From IMG/VR virus record IMGVR_UViG_3300045988_148900, positions 64,001-128,000 of that record: a stretch of DNA of 64,000 nt. One strand, given 5' to 3'. The stretch comes from a virus. The notes below the pieces were generated by a model, which worked only from the letters and a program-made list of their open reading frames with translations, was not told where the DNA came from and did not search any database. Below, in pieces: positions 3,875 to 61,467 of the stretch. The translations under genes and the position numbers were made by a program. How positions within the stretch are numbered: the first letter of the stretch is position 1; every line of letters starts with the position of its first letter.

Positions 3875-3885
3875 AATACAAAAAT

Positions 3886-3907
3886 AATTTAACGGATATA
3901 TAATTGC
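3886..3907 (-). promoter_or_regulatory. phage-specific promoter-like motif GCAATTATATATCCGTTAAATT
   Basis: Exact consensus copy on the minus strand between the terL stop (3919) and the ATG at 3874. Confidence 0.5.
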
Positions 3908-3918
3908 TTAACGGAATC

Positions 3919-6559: not shown

Positions 6560-6601
6560 ATTATAAAAAGATATATCCGGTAAACCCACATTGAATTTAC
6601 T

Positions 6602-6615
6602 GGATATATAATTGA
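6602..6615 (-). promoter_or_regulatory. phage promoter-like motif copy (TCAATTATATATCCAGTAAATT)
   Basis: Minus-strand copy 42 nt upstream of the ATG at 6559 and just after the stop of gene 6630..7430. Confidence 0.4.
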
Positions 6616-6629
6616 TTGTCCCATGCAAG

Positions 6630-7430
6630 CTACAGGTCGGCAAACTCGTCGAAATCCGACACACCACTCGACGCAGGAGTAGAACTAACAGACTCCGCAA
6701 CACCCGGAATCGACGAATCGAAGCCATCAATAACAGGAGGTTCCGGTAGAGTAATACCAGCCGGAGCAGGCTCCAAATAATCAGCAGGCTCATCAGTAGC
6801 CTTAGGCTCAATAGCATCCTGACGAGGAGCAACCGTCTTGCCTTTAGGCTTACGAACCTTCTCATCCGGAACCGCAGTAGTCGACGTGCCTACAACATCG
6901 GCAGGCTGCACAGCCGAGAATTCATCATAAGAAACATGATCCTCCGAATCAGCGGAACCAGCAGGAGCGTCGAAGCCATTCTCCGAACCAAACTCACGCT
7001 CAATAATAGCTACGAAACGATCCTTCTCCTCACGAGTCTTGAGACTCGAGAAAAGAGCAAGCAACCGACGATCCTCAGGAGAGAACGTGTCCTCAGGGAA
7101 CAACGACTTGCCCTGAGCAATCTTAGCCTCCAACTTCACAACCTCAAGAACGCGCTTCATGAGAATGTCGTACTCAACAGAACACTCCACACGAGTAAGC
7201 GTAGGCAACTCCTCAACAAGAAGAGTGTTGTAACGCTCATCCAAAGCACGCATCAAAGACATGCTCTCCTCAGCCATACTATGCATCTTCTGCAACGCAG
7301 AACAAGCCATAGTAGAGACCCCAAGCTGAACCGCCCGAAGCGCAACTCCCTGAGCCTGCTCGGACTCCATACCAAGACGTACCAACTGCTCCAAGTTCAT
7401 AACAGGAGCCAAAGACTTATTATCCTCCAT
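6630..7430 (-). CDS. hypothetical protein
   Basis: 266 aa, ATG verified. Helical N-half and acidic Pro-rich C-half. Tightly packed between the sigma-like gene and the ferritin-like gene. Confidence 0.65.
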   Translation of the reverse strand: MEDNKSLAPVMNLEQLVRLGMESEQAQGVALRAVQLGVSTMACSALQKMHSMAEESMSLMRALDERYNTLLVEELPTLTRVECSVEYDILMKRVLEVVKLEAKIAQGKSLFPEDTFSPEDRRLLALFSSLKTREEKDRFVAIIEREFGSENGFDAPAGSADSEDHVSYDEFSAVQPADVVGTSTTAVPDEKVRKPKGKTVAPRQDAIEPKATDEPADYLEPAPAGITLPEPPVIDGFDSSIPGVAESVSSTPASSGVSDFDEFADL

Positions 7431-7439
7431 GAAAAAAAA

Positions 7440-8000
7440 CTAAATATTATTGCAAAAATCTACCATCATATCCAAAACAGCCTCCGTAGCCTCCAACTCC
7501 GACTGTCGCTTATGAAGACCACGCTGGCAAAACACAAGCAACGACGGCACTAAACGCCGCGGAACATCAATACGTGAGAAACCAGCATCGCCAGAAAGAT
7601 AAGGAAGCAAATCGGAAAGCTCCGACGGTACAATCTCCGGAACCTTACCCTTCGACGGCGAAACAGACTCAAGCCTATCTTCACGGTTCAATCTACGTAA
7701 CAAATTGCCAGCCTCATTGCGAATCATCGTATAAAGATAATTATACGGTGACATCGACTTATCGAAACGATCGTGACGCTCCATAATAGTCATCAAAGCC
7801 TGACTACGCAAATCGTCAAAGTCCTGATAATACTTGCCAAAGTGAGTATTCAAAACAATACTGATAACCTTGTGAATCTCGTCAAGCTCCCGAGACGTAA
7901 CCTCAGAAACAGGATGAAGATAAAACTGAAGAAGTATCTTCTTATCTATCGCAACACGAGCGGTAGAAGAACTGACAAGTATCTCTGACGAATCACACAT
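7440..8000 (-). CDS. sigma-70 region-2-like protein (gp55-like size and architecture)
   Basis: 186 aa. DDLRSQALMTIMERHDRFDKSMSPYNYLYTMIRNEAGNLLRR follows the sigma-70 region 2 pattern. No recognisable region-4 HTH. Confidence 0.55.
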   Translation of the reverse strand: MCDSSEILVSSSTARVAIDKKILLQFYLHPVSEVTSRELDEIHKVISIVLNTHFGKYYQDFDDLRSQALMTIMERHDRFDKSMSPYNYLYTMIRNEAGNLLRRLNREDRLESVSPSKGKVPEIVPSELSDLLPYLSGDAGFSRIDVPRRLVPSLLVFCQRGLHKRQSELEATEAVLDMMVDFCNNI

Positions 8001-8245
8001 GGCTGTAGTAACTTTTTAAGTAATCCAAAACTCGAAAACGTGTGGTCCTATCAGCTAAAGGCCACCAATAAACACACTTCAACTCCTCTTTATGAACATG
8101 AGGCTTACATCGGTAATCTACAGTAGTCCACGTGCGGGGCTTGAATGAACTCGTAAGATGCGGACGTGTAAACTCCTCTATGACATCGGACGTCTTTAAC
8201 AACGACGGCAACCAAAAAGGCCGTGTATCATCAAAAGATAAACAC
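7993..8245 (-). pseudogene. 3' part of a phage ORF split by the tnpB element
   Basis: Reading frame ...CLSFDDTRPFWLPSLLKTSDV...YYSHV* continues the frame of 9509..9630 once the element and one TSD copy are removed. Confidence 0.7.
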
Positions 8246-8271
8246 AGGTGATTATATACAATTCTACACTG
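8246..8271. repeat. terminal inverted repeat, tnpB 3' side (copy A)
   Basis: AGGTGATTATATACAATTCTACACTG. Includes the tnpB stop codon and is identical to the copy B repeat at 50837-50862. Confidence 0.8.
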
Positions 8272-9442
8272 CACATATTGGCGTTTCATCGACTTCGTAA
8301 CCTCCGTCTCCACGCCCATCGAACCGTCCCACCGACGGCAAAAACATCGCTAAACCCTCTCTCAAAATGTTGCTGGCGGCATTTAAGTCTCGGTCGTGGA
8401 CCGTACCACATTGTGGACACGCCCAAGTCCTATTGCCTAACGTAAGACCGTCGTTCTTGTAGCCGCAACACCCACAGGTCTTGCTACTCGGGAAGAAACG
8501 GTCGATCTTTAAAACCGTCTTACCCAACCAACGCGCCTTATATTCCAAGACACGAACGAACTCAAACCAACATACACTCTGGATGGATTTAGCTAATCTA
8601 TGGTTACCCATCATGCCCTTAACATTCAAGTCCTCGATAAAAATGGCTTGGTTCTCACCTAAAATACCGTTGACTGCATGATGGATAAAGTTATGAATTA
8701 AATTACGTTTCTTAGCATATAGTTTATTGATTTTTAATCTTATCTCCGCACGGCGACGACTGCCTTTCTGTCGTCTTGCTTCTATTTTCTGCAAGCGGGA
8801 TATCCGACGATCGATGACGTCCGCGAAACGCGGATTAGGTATCTTGCGACCGTCGGAGGTAACCACAAAGTCCTTCAAACCCAAGTCCAGCCCGACACAC
8901 TTGGACTGGCTTGTGATAGGCGTGGGTTTAAGCTCAGGAACACCCGTCTCGACAAGGCAACTCACCCAAAAGAGTCCGCAGCCGTCGCAACTTACCGTGA
9001 CGTTACGTAACTGACCCGCAAACCGACGATCCTGCTTATAGCGTACTAAACCAATCTTCGATAGTTTGATGTGACTACTTTCCTGATCGACACCACAATG
9101 GGTGGACGGAAAACGACATGATAGCTTGCTCCGATGCTTCGACTTAAACCTTGGAAAACCCTGATGCGTCCGGAAAAACATCCGGTAAGCACTATACATA
9201 TCTCGAACCGACTGAACCAAACAAACCGCAGGAACGTCATACAACCATGCGTACTCGGACTTCAGGCCCGTCATCAAGTTAATACATTCGAACTCCGACA
9301 AGGACGTCTTATCTGTCTTGTAAGCCTTAATCTTAATATCAAGCGTAGCATTATAAACAAACCGACAACAACCGAACGTCTGACGCAACATTGCCTGCTG
9401 CGTCTTGTTCGGATAAAGCCGATATTTATAAGCACGCTTCAT
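8264..9442 (-). CDS. tnpB: TnpB RNA-guided nuclease family protein
   Basis: 392 aa. RuvC triad contexts GLDLGLKD / FIEDLNV / HDRDLNAA, and zinc finger CGCCGY...CPQCG. ATG verified. Confidence 0.9.
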   Translation of the reverse strand: MKRAYKYRLYPNKTQQAMLRQTFGCCRFVYNATLDIKIKAYKTDKTSLSEFECINLMTGLKSEYAWLYDVPAVCLVQSVRDMYSAYRMFFRTHQGFPRFKSKHRSKLSCRFPSTHCGVDQESSHIKLSKIGLVRYKQDRRFAGQLRNVTVSCDGCGLFWVSCLVETGVPELKPTPITSQSKCVGLDLGLKDFVVTSDGRKIPNPRFADVIDRRISRLQKIEARRQKGSRRRAEIRLKINKLYAKKRNLIHNFIHHAVNGILGENQAIFIEDLNVKGMMGNHRLAKSIQSVCWFEFVRVLEYKARWLGKTVLKIDRFFPSSKTCGCCGYKNDGLTLGNRTWACPQCGTVHDRDLNAASNILREGLAMFLPSVGRFDGRGDGGYEVDETPICAV

Positions 9443-9446
9443 ATCA

Positions 9447-9454
9447 CAAAGATA
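9447..9454 (-). promoter_or_regulatory. host-type -7 box TATCTTTG upstream of tnpB
   Basis: Minus-strand TATCTTTG lies 4 nt before the tnpB ATG and matches TAnnTTTG. Confidence 0.35.
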
Positions 9455-9482
9455 GTTATTTATTTACATCTATGCAAGACGG

Positions 9483-9508
9483 TAGTGTAAAATTGTATGT
9501 AATCACCT
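9483..9508. repeat. terminal inverted repeat, tnpB 5' side (copy A)
   Basis: The reverse complement AGGTGATTACATACAATTTTACACTA matches the other end at 23/26. Confidence 0.8.
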
Positions 9509-9630
9509 AAACACAAACCAATACGCTGATGCGTAGTGTAATAATGCTCCGCGCGACATATCCAACGACATATAATCCTCCGCCGCCAACTACCAACACC
9601 ACTCAGAATACTCCAAACTATCCTCTTCAT
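9509..9630 (-). pseudogene. 5' part of the phage ORF split by the tnpB element
   Basis: ATG at 9630 (MKRIVWSILSGVG...HQRIGLCL) runs into the element. The track start at 9675 is TTG. The TSD sits in the same codon phase on both sides. Confidence 0.65.
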
Positions 9631-9701
9631 CTCACCTATGACAACCTTAACTTTTGACTGTATAAATCCCTCCAAAAACCAGTTTCCGAAGCACGACTCC
9701 T

Positions 9702-10724
9702 CTACCTATTTCCAGACCGCGTGCTCACAGTACGCTCTATTAACGACCTAAGCAAAACTTCAACACCTACCTCCGACCCCAAAGCCTGCTGAGCCAAAGG
9801 AGAAAAGAAGAACCCAAACAGAGTCTTACCCAAACCTGCCTTCTGAAGCCGAAACTCAACAGAACCCTCATCAGTAGTAGCGTAAATATTACGCAACAAC
9901 AAACCAACGGACATCCGAACATCTATAGTCGGATACAACAGCAACTCCGAAAGAAGAGACGACGGATCTGTACCCCCAGACTTCGAAAAGCAAGCAACAA
10001 TGAAATCACGGAACTTGAAGTAAGAACTATCCAAAGCACGCGGACCCGCAAGCTCATAGAACTGAAGAAGCTGAAGAGCATTACGCATATGACCCTCCGA
10101 CTTCATAGCCAAAATGTGAAGCTCGTCCGCAGACAACCGAGTACCACGACTCGCAGCGATCTTAGCAACATGAGCCTCAACCAACGGAAGAGGAATAGTA
10201 CTAATGTCGATATTCACACACCGAGACTTCAAAGTAGGCGAAATATCCTCCGTACCACAAAACATGAAAATAGTATTAGGAACACCCTCCTCAACCGTCT
10301 TCAAAAGAGCATCACTACTACTACGAGAAATGGCCTGAACCTCGTCCAAGACCACAACACGACGCCCTTCCGGCACTACCATAAGCTGCTCCTTAAGACG
10401 TCTAATCCCCTCAATATTGCCCACAACCGTACCATCAAGCTCCCAGTAAAGACTCGAGTTGGACGCAGAAGCCTCCTGACACCCAGCACACGCATTACAA
10501 ACGTCGTCCTTGTGCTTAAACTCCGTACAATTCATAGCTCTGCCAAAAATACGAGCTATGCTTGACTTCCCTGAACCGAAGCTTCCCTTCAAAAACAAGG
10601 CCCGGGCTGCAATCCCGTCAGCATGGGCTATACGCTTCAGAGTCGTAACAGCCAAATCCTGACCAACCATCTCGCCAAAGGTCTTCGGCCTATACAAATT
10701 AGCTAAATTCTGATCCTGCGCCAT
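9702..10724 (-). CDS. clamp-loader ATPase (DnaX/RFC-like)
   Basis: YRPKTFGEMVGQD, Walker A GSFGSGKSS, Zn module CTEF..C.AC.GC, Walker B VVVLDEV, SRC motif LKSRC. Confidence 0.8.
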   Translation of the reverse strand: MAQDQNLANLYRPKTFGEMVGQDLAVTTLKRIAHADGIAARALFLKGSFGSGKSSIARIFGRAMNCTEFKHKDDVCNACAGCQEASASNSSLYWELDGTVVGNIEGIRRLKEQLMVVPEGRRVVVLDEVQAISRSSSDALLKTVEEGVPNTIFMFCGTEDISPTLKSRCVNIDISTIPLPLVEAHVAKIAASRGTRLSADELHILAMKSEGHMRNALQLLQFYELAGPRALDSSYFKFRDFIVACFSKSGGTDPSSLLSELLLYPTIDVRMSVGLLLRNIYATTDEGSVEFRLQKAGLGKTLFGFFFSPLAQQALGSEVGVEVLLRSLIERTVSTRSGNR

Positions 10725-10727
10725 AAA

Positions 10728-11060
10728 CTACTCCTCCGGCTTGAACAAAGAATAAAGAAGATCTGCGTCCAAGGAAACCCAGAAATCTATATCAGCATCA
10801 TGAAAAACCTCCGAGTGCGATATCCACTCGTCCGTGTCATGGTAAACAACTTCAACGATAAAACCACTCGTGAGAAAAGCTAAAACCGAAGACCCAACAC
10901 GAGGATGTTGATCAGAAGGCTTATAAGAACGCACATCCGGACCGAAAAGATTCTCAAGGACCGCTATAACGCCTCGCCGACACGAACCATAACTCAGAAG
11001 CCGATCCAACTCCGAAAGCCTCCGGGCTATCCCATCAACAAATGAATCAAGCTGCTTCAT
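10728..11060 (-). CDS. hypothetical protein
   Basis: 110 aa, ATG verified. Preceded by a degenerate motif copy (GCAATTATAACTCC, 11083-11095). Confidence 0.6.
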   Translation of the reverse strand: MKQLDSFVDGIARRLSELDRLLSYGSCRRGVIAVLENLFGPDVRSYKPSDQHPRVGSSVLAFLTSGFIVEVVYHDTDEWISHSEVFHDADIDFWVSLDADLLYSLFKPEE

Positions 11061-22415: not shown

Positions 22416-22427
22416 GAAGCTACGTTA

Positions 22428-22449
22428 AATTTAACGGATATATAATTGC
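22428..22449 (-). promoter_or_regulatory. phage promoter-like motif GCAATTATATATCCGTTAAATT
   Basis: Exact consensus copy on the minus strand, directly downstream of the terminator at 22464-22496. Confidence 0.5.
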
Positions 22450-22463
22450 TTATGCCGCAGACG

Positions 22464-32051: not shown

Positions 32052-32132
32052 AGACGAAAAATTTGTAAACAAATCAACGTAAAACAAAAAATACACCGCA
32101 AAGCACGAAGCATGCCTCCTACAAAAAAAAAC

Positions 32133-32315
32133 GGATATAGAATTGCTCCAAGCGGAAAAACTAAACTCTAAAATTCTGGATATAGAATTGCTCCAAGCAT
32201 GCATAAACACCCTAAAACAAGAAGCTATACACAAAATTCAGGATATAGAATTGCTGAAAGCAGAAACTAAAACAACACACAACAGATAAATCTCGGATAT
32301 AGAATTGCTGAAAGC
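32133..32315 (-). repeat. four direct copies of GCTT(TC/GG)AGCAATTCTATATCC (variant of the phage motif)
   Basis: Copies at 32133-32153, 32178-32198, 32241-32261 and 32295-32315. Start-to-start spacing is 45, 63 and 54 bp. Confidence 0.85.
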
Positions 32316-32419
32316 AGGCACTAAACAACACATAAATACCTGAAGCTGCACTTCATATAAACGCCGAAAGGCGCAGAAAACCAAAAGAATAGCTTGTTGA
32401 TGGTGCCCAAAGGCTACGC

Positions 32420-45503: not shown

Positions 45504-45528
45504 GAATAGACCTCCGGAATGATTTGTG

Positions 45529-45542
45529 GGATATATAATTGC
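45529..45542 (-). promoter_or_regulatory. phage promoter-like motif copy (GCAATTATATATCCCACAAAT)
   Basis: Exact 14-nt core on the minus strand, 25 nt before the ATG at 45503. Confidence 0.45.
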
Positions 45543-45621
45543 ATAACCCAAAAGACACCCTAAAAGAAAAGACCCCAGAGTGAAAACCACTCCAGAGCCT
45601 CATGACTAAAGAACGCACAAA

Positions 45622-46966: not shown

Positions 46967-46982
46967 AACCAATCAATTTAAC

Positions 46983-46996
46983 GGATATATAATTAC
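46983..46996 (-). promoter_or_regulatory. phage promoter-like motif copy (GTAATTATATATCCGTTAAATT)
   Basis: Minus strand, immediately after the terminator at 46995-47036. Confidence 0.45.
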
Positions 46997-47036
46997 AAAA
47001 ATGGTGCCGGAGAAACCTCGTAAGAAACCCGGCACC
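46995..47036 (-). terminator. hairpin terminator
   Basis: Minus strand GGTGCCGG-N18-CCGGCACC (perfect 8-bp stem) followed by ATTTTTG. Confidence 0.5.
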
Positions 47037-50798: not shown

Positions 50799-50823
50799 AA
50801 AAAAAAGTGACCCGAATGTCACT
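50799..50823 (-). terminator. rho-independent terminator
   Basis: Minus strand AGTGAC-ATTCGG-GTCACT followed by T8. Confidence 0.6.
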
Positions 50824-50836
50824 TTTAATTACATGT

Positions 50837-52099
50837 AGGTGATTATATACAATTCTACACTGCATATATTGGCGTTTCACCGACTTCGTAACCTCCGTCT
50901 CCACGCCCCTCAAACCGCCCCACCGACGGCAGTATCTCCACTAAACCCGCACGCAAAATGTTGATGGCGGCATTTAAGTCACGGTCGTGGACCGTACCAC
51001 ATTGTGGACACGTCCAAGATCGGTCCTTAAGTGTAAGACCATCGTTCTTATAACCGCAACAACCACAAGTCTTGCTGCTCGGGAAGAAACGGTCGATCTT
51101 TAAAACCGTCTTACCAAGCCACCGCGCCTTGTAATCCAAGACACGAACAAACTCGGACCAACAAATGTTTTGAATGGATTTAGCCAAACTGTGATTACCC
51201 ATCATACCCTTAACATTCAAGTCCTCGATAAACACGGCTTGGTTCTCACCCAGTATCGAGTTGACTGTATGATGGATAAAGTTATTAATCAAATTACGTT
51301 TCTTAGCATATAACTTATTGATTTTAAGTCTTATCTCCGCACGGCGTCTACTGCCTTTCTGGCGGCGGGACTCGATCTTCTGCAGACGCGATATGCGGCG
51401 ATCTATAACATCCGCGAAACGCGGATTAGGTATCTTACGTCCATCGGATGTAACTATGAAGTCCTTCAACCCCAAGTCAAGACCAACGCACTTAGACTGG
51501 CTTGTGATAGGCGCGGGTTTAAGCTCAAGAACACCCGTCTCCACAAGACAACTAACCCAATAACGTCCGCAACCATCGCAGCTCACCGTGATGTTACGTA
51601 ACTGCCCTTTGAACCGACGATCTTGCTTATATTTAATCAAACCGATTTTCGGCAATTTAATGTGACGCGTTTCTTGGTCTACAGAGCAGAAGGGAACCGA
51701 AAATCTACACGATAATTTACTACGATGTTTGGACTTAAACTTTGGGTAACCCTGCTTGATCTTAAAGAATTGCTGATAAGCACTATCCATGTCATAGACT
51801 GCCTGCGGCAGACATACATGCGGAACAACACGCAACCACTCATGCTCTTCCTTAAGACCTGTAATTAACTTGATGCAGTCGAACTTAGACAACGTCGTCT
51901 TATCCGCCTCATATGCCTTTATCTTAGCAGCAAGTGTGGCGTTATAAATGAACCGACAACAATCGAACGACTGACGCAACATCGCCTCCTGCGTCTTGTT
52001 CGGATAAAGTCGGTATTTATAGGCACGCTTCATGATGCTAATATAGTTGTTTATTTACGTCTATGCAAGCTGTTAGTGCAAAATTGTATGTAATCACCT
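50837..52099 (-). mobile_element. tnpB-only element with TIRs and 6-bp TSD (copy B, 1263 bp)
   Basis: Same ends as copy A (50837-50862 and 52074-52099, 22/26 as inverted repeats). Flanked by direct ACATGT at 50831-50836 and 52100-52105. Confidence 0.8.
50855..52033 (-). CDS. tnpB: TnpB RNA-guided nuclease family protein
   Basis: 392 aa. About 85% identical to the copy A protein by eye. RuvC D/E/D contexts and the zinc finger are intact. Confidence 0.9.
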   Translation of the reverse strand: MKRAYKYRLYPNKTQEAMLRQSFDCCRFIYNATLAAKIKAYEADKTTLSKFDCIKLITGLKEEHEWLRVVPHVCLPQAVYDMDSAYQQFFKIKQGYPKFKSKHRSKLSCRFSVPFCSVDQETRHIKLPKIGLIKYKQDRRFKGQLRNITVSCDGCGRYWVSCLVETGVLELKPAPITSQSKCVGLDLGLKDFIVTSDGRKIPNPRFADVIDRRISRLQKIESRRQKGSRRRAEIRLKINKLYAKKRNLINNFIHHTVNSILGENQAVFIEDLNVKGMMGNHSLAKSIQNICWSEFVRVLDYKARWLGKTVLKIDRFFPSSKTCGCCGYKNDGLTLKDRSWTCPQCGTVHDRDLNAAINILRAGLVEILPSVGRFEGRGDGGYEVGETPIYAV

Positions 52100-52343
52100 A
52101 CATGTATTTCTGCTCCCAAGCTTCAAGAGCTGATTCTAACTCAGGAGGAATTAATTCTGAACGATCGATATCCCTAATCGTAGTCAGAAAAGACTCAATG
52201 CTACTAACCAAAGGACGAGTATCTGTCAACAACTGAGCCTCAGCAAGATCAACAGCCTTCAAGCAATCGAATCTGTCAAACTTGCCAGAAGTATGCAGAA
52301 GAATAAACTCCTCAGCATCTGAACTATAAGGACGACGTTTCAT
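52098..52343 (-). CDS. hypothetical protein
   Basis: 81 aa. The present TAG stop is built from the last 2 nt of the element plus the first TSD base. The pre-insertion sequence would give TAA at the same codon. Confidence 0.6.
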   Translation of the reverse strand: MKRRPYSSDAEEFILLHTSGKFDRFDCLKAVDLAEAQLLTDTRPLVSSIESFLTTIRDIDRSELIPPELESALEAWEQKYM

Positions 52344-60979: not shown

Positions 60980-60999
60980 GCGCAACACAATTATTTAAC

Positions 61000-61013
61000 G
61001 GATATATAATTGC
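61000..61013 (-). promoter_or_regulatory. phage promoter-like motif copy (GCAATTATATATCCGTTAAATA)
   Basis: Exact 14-nt core, 20 nt before the tail fibre ATG and just after the terminator at 61046-61074. Confidence 0.5.
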
Positions 61014-61045
61014 TACCCCACCCTACAGACATTAAAACATAACTA

Positions 61046-61088: not shown

Positions 61089-61343
61089 CTAACTCTCCTG
61101 TCGCATCCGTCGAAGAACTTCCTGCCACTCGCAATCCATGTCGCGCCAATAGGTATAACCCTCCGGAGTCATACAAAACTGAAAGGCCTCGAGAATGTAA
61201 AAAGGAGGCCGACTGACCGGATCACAAACATAGGAATGAAAAGACTGACGACCCAAATTAAACGTGAACTTCTCGAAAGCTCCTCGATCCTTCAGAAAGG
61301 ACTCAAATGCAATAACAAATCTGTTGTTAACAAGCATGACCAT
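61089..61343 (-). CDS. hypothetical protein
   Basis: 84 aa, ATG verified. Confidence 0.55.
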   Translation of the reverse strand: MVMLVNNRFVIAFESFLKDRGAFEKFTFNLGRQSFHSYVCDPVSRPPFYILEAFQFCMTPEGYTYWRDMDCEWQEVLRRMRQES

Positions 61344-61467
61344 TAATAGCTAACCCAAGTGAATGTCAACAAAAAGCATCGGCGTGAAGACAGTATTAAA
61401 CAAATAAGCAATATCCTAACAGTGAGCCGACTCGACAACTCGGATGATACGTAAAACTCTAAAATGC

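Follow-up and report, generated by a model that had tools for sequence, protein, structure and literature searches.

How does a single tnpB gene come to sit between inverted repeats in the middle of a phage ORF, and does it help the element that carries it? The window analysed here is the 64,000-nucleotide stretch at positions 64,001 to 128,000 of the IMG/VR record IMGVR_UViG_3300045988_148900. A first-pass annotation, made from the letters alone, had described at 8246-9508 a unit with tnpB as its only gene, bounded by 26-bp inverted repeats and a 6-bp duplication. It proposed that the unit was either moved in trans by a staggered-cut (DDE-type) transposase or represented an undescribed class of tnpB transposon. 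We call this element copy A and its relative in the same window copy B; the features of both are collected in Table 1.

Table 1. Coordinates of the two elements, their cargo and their insertion sites (positions in the window)
Feature	Position	Strand	Remarks
Copy A	8247..9507	-	Non-autonomous IS1595-family element, 1261 bp, GG...CC termini, tnpB and predicted omega-RNA scaffold
Copy A target-site duplication, low-coordinate	8239..8246	.	TAAACACA; same as 9508-9515; single in the empty sites of related phage contigs L026-L028
Copy A target-site duplication, high-coordinate	9508..9515	.	TAAACACA
Copy A right end (RE) terminal inverted repeat, tnpB 3' side	8247..8270	+	GGTGATTATATACAATTCTACACT
Copy A left end (LE) terminal inverted repeat, tnpB 5' side	9484..9507	-	GGTGATTACATACAATTTTACACT
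tnpB of copy A	8264..9442	-	392 aa, ISDra2-like; stop codon within RE repeat
Predicted omega-RNA scaffold	8247..8338	-	Four helices (8254-8338) and single-stranded AAUCACC tail
Predicted guide region	8227..8246	-	TGTGTTTATCTTTTGATGAT; RE read-through into flank; predicted from geometry only
Candidate TAM GTTT (minus strand)	9515..9518	-	Three bases 5' of the duplication and the first duplicated base
Interrupted 122-codon phage ORF, N-terminal part	9508..9630	-	ATG at 9630
Interrupted 122-codon phage ORF, C-terminal part	7993..8246	-	
Copy B	50838..52098	-	Same element family as copy A, 8-bp duplication on both flanks
Copy B target-site duplication, low-coordinate	50830..50837	.	TACATGTA
Copy B target-site duplication, high-coordinate	52099..52106	.	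TACATGTA
Copy B tnpB	50855..52033	-	392 aa, intact, 82% identical to copy A protein
Terminator-like hairpin and T-run	50802..50828	-	Just downstream of copy B RE flank; sequence read directly

Copy A is real, and its limits lie one base further in at each end than first drawn. The 23/26 match between its ends holds up (a dinucleotide-preserving shuffle expects 0), but the true inverted repeat is 24 nt long. The duplication is 8 bp instead of 6: AAACAC does stand on either side of copy A, and the bases next to this 6-mer are duplicated too. All 8 bases are repeated in 31 of the 32 related elements that have the inner 6-mer repeated. Where the outer bases are not T...A, 19 of 20 such elements still repeat the full 8 bp; the outer two bases are therefore part of the target, outside the element itself. 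A 6-bp duplication as the mark of an unusual IS1595 subgroup is ruled out, since the outer bases are also duplicated. Copy B and further copies show the same left/right mismatches as copy A, at positions 10 and 19 of the repeat. The element is also less strand-skewed than the phage, as had been noted by hand count (AT skew 0.06 for copy A, 0.02 for copy B and 0.26 on average for the phage, sd 0.10).

Relatives that lack the insertions confirm both sites, with three contigs per site showing the site empty and the 8-mer once. Deletion of copy A restores the 122-codon ORF that it was said to split, and this ORF is intact and contiguous in L026-L028. Copy B is 87-91% identical to copy A at the DNA level (aligned segments) and separates the stop codon from the terminator of an 81-aa ORF (52098-52343, minus strand). 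The first G of copy B completes the TAG stop. The 8-mer TACATGTA occurs once in the three related contigs in which site B is empty, and in two of them, L030 and L031, the hairpin at 50802-50828 is contiguous with the stop codon of the 81-aa ORF. Before copy B inserted, this terminator-like hairpin belonged to that ORF.

Which transposase could have moved these elements? The defining traits of the IS1595 family are 8-bp duplications together with zinc-finger and DDE_Tnp_IS1595 domains, and Merlin elements, which are related to it, have terminal GG (PMC8101967). The ends and the 8-bp duplication of copies A and B are those of the IS1595 family. Autonomous elements whose ends are near-identical, and whose IS1595 transposase is intact, are common in similar gut-phage contigs. 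L103 and L184 encode a 307-aa transposase matching NF033547 transpos_IS1595 (7e-57) and PF12762 (3e-42), together with a weak, below-cutoff match to the IS1595 zinc-ribbon family. The repeats of the L184 element enclose the transposase and are identical to the copy A right-end repeat at 22 of 24 positions; for the L196 element the figure is 19/24. Altogether we found 237 transposase-encoding stretches in viral contigs. Among the 80 that we examined, 40 have a repeat pair and 18 of these 40 an exact 8-bp duplication, and cargo genes usually lie beside the transposase. However, tnpB was found inside the repeats in none of these 40 autonomous elements (from 80 of 237 loci), so the link between TnpB and IS1595 rests on the shared ends and the duplication length. 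In the 64-kb window the best tblastn match to an IS1595 transposase has E = 0.04, and none is significant. Because copy A encodes tnpB only and the window has no transposase match, the element is non-autonomous and falls short of a complete IS. The first of the two proposals, in which a staggered-cut DDE transposase moves the element in trans, thus finds support in the IS1595 ends, the 8-bp duplication and autonomous partners with repeats identical at 22 of 24 positions.

The cargo is a single intact tnpB, as had been reported, whose 392-aa product has the HTH_OrfB_IS605, OrfB_IS605 and Cas12f1-like_TNB domains (Pfam: PF12323, PF01385, PF07282). It scores 325 bits against NCBIfam guided_TnpB, above the 100-bit cutoff; its best NCBIfam score, 388 bits, is to IS200_TnpB and falls under the 425-bit cutoff of that family. 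ISDra2 TnpB (8exa) is similar (E = 1e-67), and the closest solved chain is 9yyg (E = 2.6e-79, residue-by-residue alignment). The RuvC motifs DLG, IEDL and DRD and the CxxC...CxxC zinc finger are all kept. Having the catalytic residues of RNA-guided nucleases, copy A TnpB is a predicted nuclease.

The tnpB stop codon (8264-8266) lies 17 nt from the element end at 8247. Covariation, which had been proposed as a check, supports a four-helix consensus for an omega-RNA scaffold that overlaps the tnpB 3' end and runs to the right end. In scaffold alignment A1, 98.6% of cells are paired and 8 of 19 pairs have compensatory changes, as compared with at most 2 in slid controls. The last predicted hairpin uses the inner half of the right-end repeat. 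The suggestion of functionally distinct ends is therefore plausible from the sequence, since the right-end repeat would form the loop and 3' arm of this hairpin. At a permissive threshold, Rfam gave no family match in 8150-9600, and so lends no support to an intron, an IStron or a described omega-RNA family. The predicted guide agrees with the empty sites of L027 and L028 at positions 1-16.

How widespread are such elements? We found 77 distinct repeat-bounded elements in phage contigs. At least five TnpB lineages occur within these ends, with a mutual identity of only 22-43% where compared, and miniature elements of 185 bp and about 335 bp keep mainly the scaffold. The repeats vary slightly among lineages; that of the 403-aa TnpB lineage, for example, ends in ...AATTACC. 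A megablast search with 7000-11000 had no match among GenBank phages, and distant blastn of the element gave short tnpB-internal similarities only. Scanning a genome collection with the repeat pattern returned 20 matches, approximately the chance expectation; several of them, such as L039, L040 and L042, are chance matches, but L037 gave the first link to IS1595. A greater loss of the duplication in TnpB carriers than in miniature elements was not significant (16/40 versus 8/13, p = 0.21), and 22 of 40 autonomous elements have lost it, as often as TnpB carriers. For L177, a microhomology deletion was considered and rejected: the removed 176 bp start and end with GTGTTT, yet no copy of the 6-mer is kept.

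If the nuclease matters to the element, the insertion sites might carry its signature. GTTT, the candidate TAM of copy A, is found at 5 of 8 sites of the 392-aa lineage and at 0 of 45 sites of other lineages; T[TA]AT at 12 of 16 sites of the 407-aa lineage and at 7 of 9 miniature elements with the scaffold of that lineage; and TAAA at 6 of 6 sites of the 403-aa lineage. At the mirrored right-end position, each group has zero or one motif match. Among 18 autonomous elements, GTTT occurs in none, TAAA in one and T[TA]AT in three on each side. Comparisons of own with other lineages give Fisher p-values of 2e-5 to 4e-8 for GTTT, TAAA and T[TA]AT, and of 1.6e-3 for a weaker AAA[CT] motif; these p-values are optimistic, because the motifs were picked after viewing the same data and many of the loci are related and stem from one large co-assembly (sample 3300045988). 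In copies without a duplication, the lineage motif precedes the right-end flank in undeleted genomes in 15 of 22 cases. Copy B is preceded by GAAAT and not by GTTT. Where an element lies just 3' of its lineage motif, the empty site combines that motif with the guide match, which is what TnpB homing requires. The insertion sites thus suggest that the nuclease may aid the spread of the element.

We think it probable that copies A and B belong to a non-autonomous IS1595 lineage of large gut-phage genomes, with TnpB and its omega RNA as sole cargo, acting as a homing drive. Both repeats would be bound by an IS1595 transposase that acts in trans, coming from another part of the phage, from a co-infecting phage or from the host, and that pastes the element in with 8 bp between the staggered cuts. 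Processing of the tnpB transcript would give an omega RNA whose scaffold ends in the right-end-repeat hairpin, and the guide would be the phage DNA just past the right end, from the duplicated 8-mer onward. An unoccupied allele would present motif and guide match, a valid TnpB target. An occupied allele should be protected, because ...CACC would precede the guide match at the right end and the element would split the one at the left end. In mixed phage populations TnpB would cut element-free genomes, which would then acquire the element through recombinational repair (homing); this would account for the finding that nearly all copies fixed in phage lineages are motif-adjacent. IS605-family TnpB attacks vacant sites as a homing nuclease (PMC10690162). 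Against this reading, one review holds that an OMEGA module should be of little advantage to cut-and-paste DDE elements, since their excision already leaves a break (PMC13565253).

It is tempting to go further and to hypothesize that IS1595 has repeatedly captured unrelated TnpB/omega-RNA modules, which serve as RNA-guided homing drives between co-infecting phage genomes. This wider proposal is tentative, and taken jointly with the steps that follow we give it somewhat less than an even chance. The transposase would supply new sites, and only insertions 3' of a cognate TAM would sweep, since the vacant allele is then a target. The guide-RNA-only miniature elements would parasitise TnpB in trans. 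Copies without a duplication would be the product of drive or transposition at a neighbouring TAM site that collapses the interval.

Could TnpB instead be a passenger? A non-autonomous IS1595 element whose TnpB is passive or otherwise employed would still show lineage motifs if transposase variants had their own target preference in each lineage. The autonomous elements do show a mild preference, with T as the first duplicated base in 10 of 18 and A as the eighth in 12 of 18, and their T[TA]AT matches, equal on both sides, point the same way, as do the slight repeat differences among lineages noted for the 403-aa TnpB and the missing motif at copy B. However, this preference is symmetric, whereas the motif is one-sided and fixed to the orientation of tnpB and omega RNA, where a two-fold symmetric transpososome should give either. 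Nearly the same repeats go with different motifs (GTTT in the 392-aa and T[TA]AT in the 407-aa lineage), and a motif is common to a TnpB lineage and the miniature elements with its scaffold, while autonomous elements are without it. We regard passive cargo as unlikely. An explanation that gives TnpB a more direct part is that TnpB and omega RNA, nuclease-active and either guided as in CAST or tethered at the TAM, steer DDE insertion itself, and not later selection. Roughly 75-100% of sites do adjoin the motif at a constant distance, even at the right-end junctions of duplication-less copies, as such steering would produce, but a drive acting after insertion gives the same pattern. Moreover, a guide is copied from the flank only once the element has inserted, so none can be available for a site not yet occupied; recruitment of the transposase would then fall to TAM binding alone, and an adaptor such as TniQ or TnsC is absent. 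TnpB also keeps its catalytic residues, and guided insertion seems to us quite improbable.

Two further explanations do without an IS1595 transposase, and we find both scarcely credible. A canonical IS200/IS605 (IS1341-type) or IS607 element with a Y1 or serine TnpA, in which the inverted and flanking repeats are incidental, would suit the ISDra2-like TnpB, its best NCBIfam score to IS200_TnpB and the short conserved motif 5' of the left end, like IS605 targets. Yet distinct 8-bp duplications were checked against empty sites at two loci and are exact in approximately 30 more elements, and the duplication separates the motif from the element. The ends are inverted repeats common to DDE elements and not asymmetric subterminal hairpins, and no Y1 or serine recombinase was seen that could explain them, a possibility that the first-pass annotation had raised against its own reading. 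The sole tnpB gene and a window without a transposase might also fit a new transposon class, in which both the staggered cut and the movement are the work of TnpB itself or of an unknown enzyme. However, the ends and duplication length fit a known DDE family, and similar phage contigs hold autonomous members of that family in abundance; TnpB cleaves 15-21 nt from the TAM, away from the duplication.

An undescribed class is in any case not needed, since a connection of TnpB with DDE transposons is already published. Altae-Tran et al. 2023 (PMC10691335) describe six DDE-associated TnpB branches (DDE-1 to DDE-6), as well as solo TnpBs that share their ends. The elements reported there resemble ours in their inverted terminal repeats and in a tnpB 3' end within 250 bp of the transposon end, and mobilisation in trans was likewise deduced from ends common to transposase-bearing elements. 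In contrast to that account, we did not find tnpB and a transposase in one repeat pair (40 autonomous elements), and several unrelated TnpB lineages use one end set here. The DDE families linked to TnpB in these sources, as far as cited, are IS630 (PMC10691335) and ISL2 and IS1031 (PMC13565253). IS1595 is not mentioned for TnpB in the main text of PMC10691335 or in the cited part of PMC13565253, and in the literature we found no report of a TnpB-IS1595 link or of the geometry of motif and duplication. Compared with IS1595 members (a family related to IS1016 and Merlin, some with passenger genes), copies A and B share the GG-starting inverted repeats and the 8-bp duplication. They differ in lacking a zinc-ribbon and DDE_Tnp_IS1595 transposase, in their TnpB and omega-RNA cargo and in residing in phages. 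The one-sided site motif is found only in guide-RNA-bearing elements, in contrast to autonomous members.

Several other systems share part of this design. Like the IS1341 group of IS200/IS605, the elements have an ISDra2-like TnpB and a predicted omega RNA that extends over the gene 3' end to the right end. As in IS605 homing, the guide would derive from the flank, and the short motif 5' of the left end would make the vacant site a target. However, IS605 elements lack both inverted repeats and a duplication and carry asymmetric subterminal hairpins instead, and their TAM is the TnpA target and abuts the left end, whereas here the motif overlaps the first duplicated base only. Unlike IS607, there is no serine recombinase TnpA, and duplication and inverted repeats are present. 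Fanzor1 occurs in eukaryotic and viral transposons with terminal inverted repeats. One example, a non-autonomous element of Spodoptera frugiperda ascovirus 1a (PMC10711439), likewise has a TnpB-family nuclease as sole cargo, terminal inverted repeats with a target-site duplication and two viral copies; there too the repeat contributes to the guide-RNA scaffold, and the RNA continues beyond the duplication. That system is eukaryotic, whereas ours is bacterial and phage-borne with a prokaryotic TnpB, and the DDE family is identified only here. The 185-bp and approximately 335-bp relatives share the ends and duplication of autonomous DDE elements, as MITEs do, but unlike MITEs they have kept a structured guide-RNA scaffold, and their insertion sites show the motif of the TnpB lineage to which that scaffold belongs.

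TnpB is understood to work in homing alongside the scarless transposases of IS605 and IS607, and one review describes its presence in DDE elements as rare and of doubtful benefit (PMC13565253). In crAss-like phages, tnpB genes are sporadic (PMC11054128), and by analogy these genes may be cargo of the same kind. The elements form a large natural data set from gut-phage genomes, with at least five TnpB lineages, guide-RNA-only miniatures, autonomous IS1595 partners and many matched empty sites. The predicted target is motif, 8-bp duplication and right-end flank, and the idea of TnpB as a drive is therefore directly testable. The site geometry also predicts TAMs for several compact nucleases, with a scaffold 3' end of ...AAUCACC. 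If the homing-drive reading is true, then TAM, duplication, guide and drive would be readable straight from population genomics, and these phage elements would show what benefit an OMEGA module brings to a DDE transposon.

The 26-mer AGGTGATTATATACAATTCTACACTG occurs in the window at 8246 and again at 50837. An inverted partner with 3 mismatches occupies 9483-9508, and shuffled sequence gave zero comparable matches to either. The second occurrence belongs to a second element, at 50837-52099 by the first, uncorrected delimitation. We call the two elements copies A and B, with the right end on the 3' side of tnpB and the left end on its 5' side. As the first-pass annotation had it, the tnpB gene of copy A is intact (sequence reading of 7900-9800 and an ORF listing), and its 392 amino acid product has all three Pfam domains of IS605-type OrfB/TnpB. 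The TnpB of copy B, also intact, is 82% identical to it. The flanking hexamers differ between the copies (AAACAC at copy A, ACATGT at copy B), and in both the matching extends one base outward on each side, giving 8-mers. Because these outer bases are T and A in the window, the length of the duplication is decided not by the window but by the relatives: of 32 repeat-bounded elements in which the inner 6-mer is duplicated, 31 duplicate all eight bases, among them 19 of the 20 whose “first” or “last” base is other than A or T. The element therefore reads GG...CC. The ends and duplication annotated earlier are real, but the 26-bp repeats and 6-bp duplication become 24 nt and 8 bp. A 108 amino acid ORF that starts inside copy A, out of frame with tnpB, crosses the right-end repeat in frame with the C-terminal part of a phage ORF split by the element, making a truncated or fused product of the latter possible.

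When copy A and one repeat are deleted, this phage ORF of 122 codons is restored. Three related phage contigs (L026-L028), retrieved with the clamp-loader gene adjoining copy A, are collinear over the site and all without the element. They read ...GTATTGGTT TGTGTTTA TCTTTTGAGG..., with the repeat present once, and in 3/3 the ORF is unbroken, as had been predicted. For copy B, contigs L029-L031 were retrieved with the adjoining 277 amino acid gene, and L030 and L031 read ...GAGA TACATGTA ATTAAAAGTGAC..., again with a single 8-mer. The alignment with uninserted relatives suggested in the first-pass annotation thus finds the repeat single in the empty sites at both loci, which makes copies A and B genuine insertions, each with a duplication of its target. 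Copy B is inserted after the stop codon of an 81 amino acid ORF and before that ORF's terminator, its terminal G re-forming the stop codon. The window itself holds the empty version of sites that tnpB elements occupy in relatives; related phages therefore differ mainly in the position of their tnpB elements. Two empty alleles, in L028 and L029, are changed exactly at the predicted recognition site, and may be escape variants or chance. Separately, a 26-nt motif (...ATTTAACGGATATATAATTGCT) with 7 dispersed copies in the window and a cluster of 4 close copies resembles a promoter or regulatory site of the phage.

Coordinates of the elements, sites and neighboring features
Feature	Source	Position	Detail
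Copy A, corrected	window	8247-9507	24-nt repeats, 8-bp duplication TAAACACA
Copy A tnpB	window	9442 to 8264 (minus)	392 aa
Copy B, corrected	window	50838-52098	24-nt repeats, 8-bp duplication TACATGTA
108-aa ORF	window	7993-8319 (minus)	ATG at 8319
Sites empty in window	window	~38971, ~46705, ~61274-61367	occupied in L015/L175, L157 (415-aa lineage), L010/L007
26-nt motif	window	3883-3908, 6591-6616, 22425-22450, 32122-32147, 45518-45543, 46972-46997, 60989-61014
26-nt motif cluster	window	32126-32325	4 copies
Changed empty allele, copy A site	L028	~5817	GGCTT, not GGTTT, 5' of target
Changed empty allele, copy B site	L029	~6055	TACAGTA in place of TACATGTA
Copy A insertion	L177	336-1598	metagenome contig ERZ1106963.315
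Autonomous elements with cargo	L053; L052	593-3807; 781-3740
Abutting or nested cluster	L166	3908-5425
tnpB element in resident tnpB	L003	2485-3810
Same resident tnpB, intact	L139	1811-2495
Extra tandem copies of ATAATCACCT	L014	7201-7231	after right end
bAvd-like protein and reverse transcriptase	L048	5789-7752	Melainabacteria MAG

Which transposase moves these elements? A strict repeat pattern matched 8 viral loci and a degenerate one, at the least, more than 120 among the matches listed. In an Aquimarina locus from a genome scan (L037), a decayed IS1595-type transposase lies within the same repeats, and its full-length relatives lie in elements with similar repeats and cargo. The phage contigs L103/L184 and L137/L190 have an intact 307 amino acid protein enclosed by repeats reading GGTGATTATATACAACTTTACAC, a type 22/24 identical to the right end of copy A. 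The L103 protein matches NF033547 transpos_IS1595 (7e-57) and PF12762 (3e-42), and weakly, below cutoff, the IS1595 zinc-ribbon family. In viral contigs, a protein-based scan located 237 stretches encoding such a transposase; the repeat pair is present at 40 of 80 loci taken from these, with an exact 8-bp duplication in 18 of the 40. Some contigs combine an autonomous element with tnpB or miniature elements (e.g., 3300014572_000003, the source of L019, L063, L086, and L222). No IS1595 transposase was found in the 64-kb window, and no tnpB inside the autonomous elements examined (the 40 with a repeat pair). Judging from these sequences, copies A and B very probably belong to the IS1595 family, and they are non-autonomous elements with TnpB as cargo, apparently mobilised in trans. 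The central proposal of the first-pass annotation, a DDE transposase acting in trans, is supported by the IS1595-type ends, the 8-bp duplications, and the autonomous relatives. Autonomous IS1595 elements of this lineage (L052, L053, L184-L240) regularly bear cargo (KilA-N protein, RhuM, small lipoprotein- or OMP-like ORFs) and measure 2.8-5.5 kb, much above plain IS size. In L048, a gene pair resembling a diversity-generating retroelement adjoins a repeat-like match, probably by coincidence.

The search for further copies found many related repeat-bounded elements, 77 of them distinct among the matches listed, and metagenomes, scanned with a string specific to the 392 lineage, contributed human-gut contigs. 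The TnpB carriers (1226-1351 bp) represent at least five TnpB lineages, named by protein length: 392 (both window copies), 371/402, 407, 403, and 415 amino acids. The 392 type is ~43% identical to the 371 type and 22% identical, over half the length only, to the 407 type. There are also internal-deletion derivatives (L080, L167) and miniature elements of 185 bp and ~335 bp, which consist mainly of the 3' non-coding/overlapping RNA region of the 371/402 and 407 lineages. In L166 three elements with ends in common lie within 1.5 kb: a decayed carrier, a fragment of 257 bp, and a scaffold-only element of 185 bp. In L003 the first 686 bp of a resident tnpB have given way to a second, repeat-bounded tnpB element, and in L014 the element's terminal 10 nt recur in tandem.

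The last ~95 nt before the right end are conserved far above the upstream coding sequence. In a structure alignment of 15 sequences from the 392 and 371/402 lineages, a common four-helix fold has 98.6% of cells paired and compensatory changes in 8/19 pairs, against at most 2 when the partners are slid by 1 to 3 columns. The covariance check thus supports a structured, predicted omega-RNA scaffold, for which Rfam has no matching family. The inner half of the right-end repeat provides the loop and 3' arm of the scaffold's last hairpin, which would explain concretely why the left/right differences noticed in the first-pass annotation are conserved. The predicted omega RNA would end ...AAUCACC and then run on into the flank. 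Fanzor RNAs are a parallel, as their scaffolds include TIR and TSD sequence (PMC10711439). The 392 amino acid TnpB is similar to ISDra2 TnpB (E = 1e-67), with RuvC motifs and zinc finger kept.

With sites oriented by tnpB or scaffold, these elements lie 3' of a 4-mer (the first base of the duplication and the three on its 5' side) that differs by lineage: GTTT for 392 (5/8 sites), TAAA for 403 (6/6), T[TA]AT for 407 (12/16) and for ~335-bp elements with the 407-type scaffold (7/9), and AAA[CT] for 371/402 (4/9). At the opposite end, the mirrored position has 0-1 matches in each group. In Fisher tests of own versus other lineages, P is 2e-5 to 4e-8 for GTTT, TAAA, and T[TA]AT and 1.6e-3 for AAA[CT], the motifs having been chosen from the data tested and the loci being related to each other. 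Copy B is preceded by GAAAT, not GTTT. Could the transposase itself produce such a preference? Autonomous elements lack a guide RNA, and their sites have no more than a mild, symmetric preference for T...A (GTTT 0/18, TAAA 1/18, T[TA]AT 3/18 on each side). Alone, a symmetric DDE transpososome could not yield a motif that follows the orientation and the lineage of the cargo. Most simply, the 4-mer would be the TAM. In an unoccupied genome, the TAM followed by the 8-mer and right flank would be the target of the guide; in an occupied one, that sequence would follow ...CACC at the right end, while at the left end the element would split it. The predicted guide of copy A, TGTGTTTATCTTTTGA, agrees over 16 nt with the empty alleles in L027 and L028, where the match comes after GGTT or GGCT. 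A one-sided, lineage-specific motif adjoining the duplication points to TnpB-driven spread, and we lean slightly towards the motif being a TAM that homing explains.

Over half of the carriers lack the 8-bp repeat, as do over half of the autonomous elements and ~40% of the miniature ones. Against the available comparators, the element stands in place of 22-686 bp of phage DNA, and whenever an intermediate shares the left junction, the DNA is missing beyond the right end (L005 vs L001 and L006; L016 vs L009; copy A vs L177). L177 has the copy A insertion with an identical left junction (element 93.5% identical), but its right end meets the phage ORF 176 bp deeper, at window position 8069, with GTGTGTTT immediately before the junction; L177 thus shows that the phage can do without the 122-codon ORF that the element interrupts. 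This junction immediately follows GTTT. In undeleted genomes the lineage's own motif precedes the new right flank for 15 of 22 copies without a duplication, so that the right end would abut a valid predicted target elsewhere. Such forms may arise by intramolecular transposition, discussed for IS copies lacking duplications (PMC11708052), by recombination between two nearby copies, or by collapse during break repair.

IS200/IS605 and IS607 elements lack both inverted repeats and duplications (PMC13565253), in agreement with the first-pass annotation; copies A and B differ in having both. Its alternative of an undescribed tnpB transposon class was an overstatement. Altae-Tran et al. 2023 (PMC10691335) had already described six DDE-transposase-associated TnpB branches, all with inverted terminal repeats, along with solo TnpBs that have the same ends and are presumably mobilised in trans. 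The DDE families named for TnpB association in a review are IS630, ISL2, and IS1031 (PMC13565253). In the literature searched, which takes in the main text of PMC10691335, TnpB is nowhere linked to IS1595. In epsilon crAss-like phages, two unrelated tnpB genes occur sporadically, their ends not analysed (PMC11054128). TnpB in DDE transposons is thus already known; new here, judged against that literature, is TnpB/omega-RNA as the sole cargo of IS1595-family non-autonomous phage transposons.
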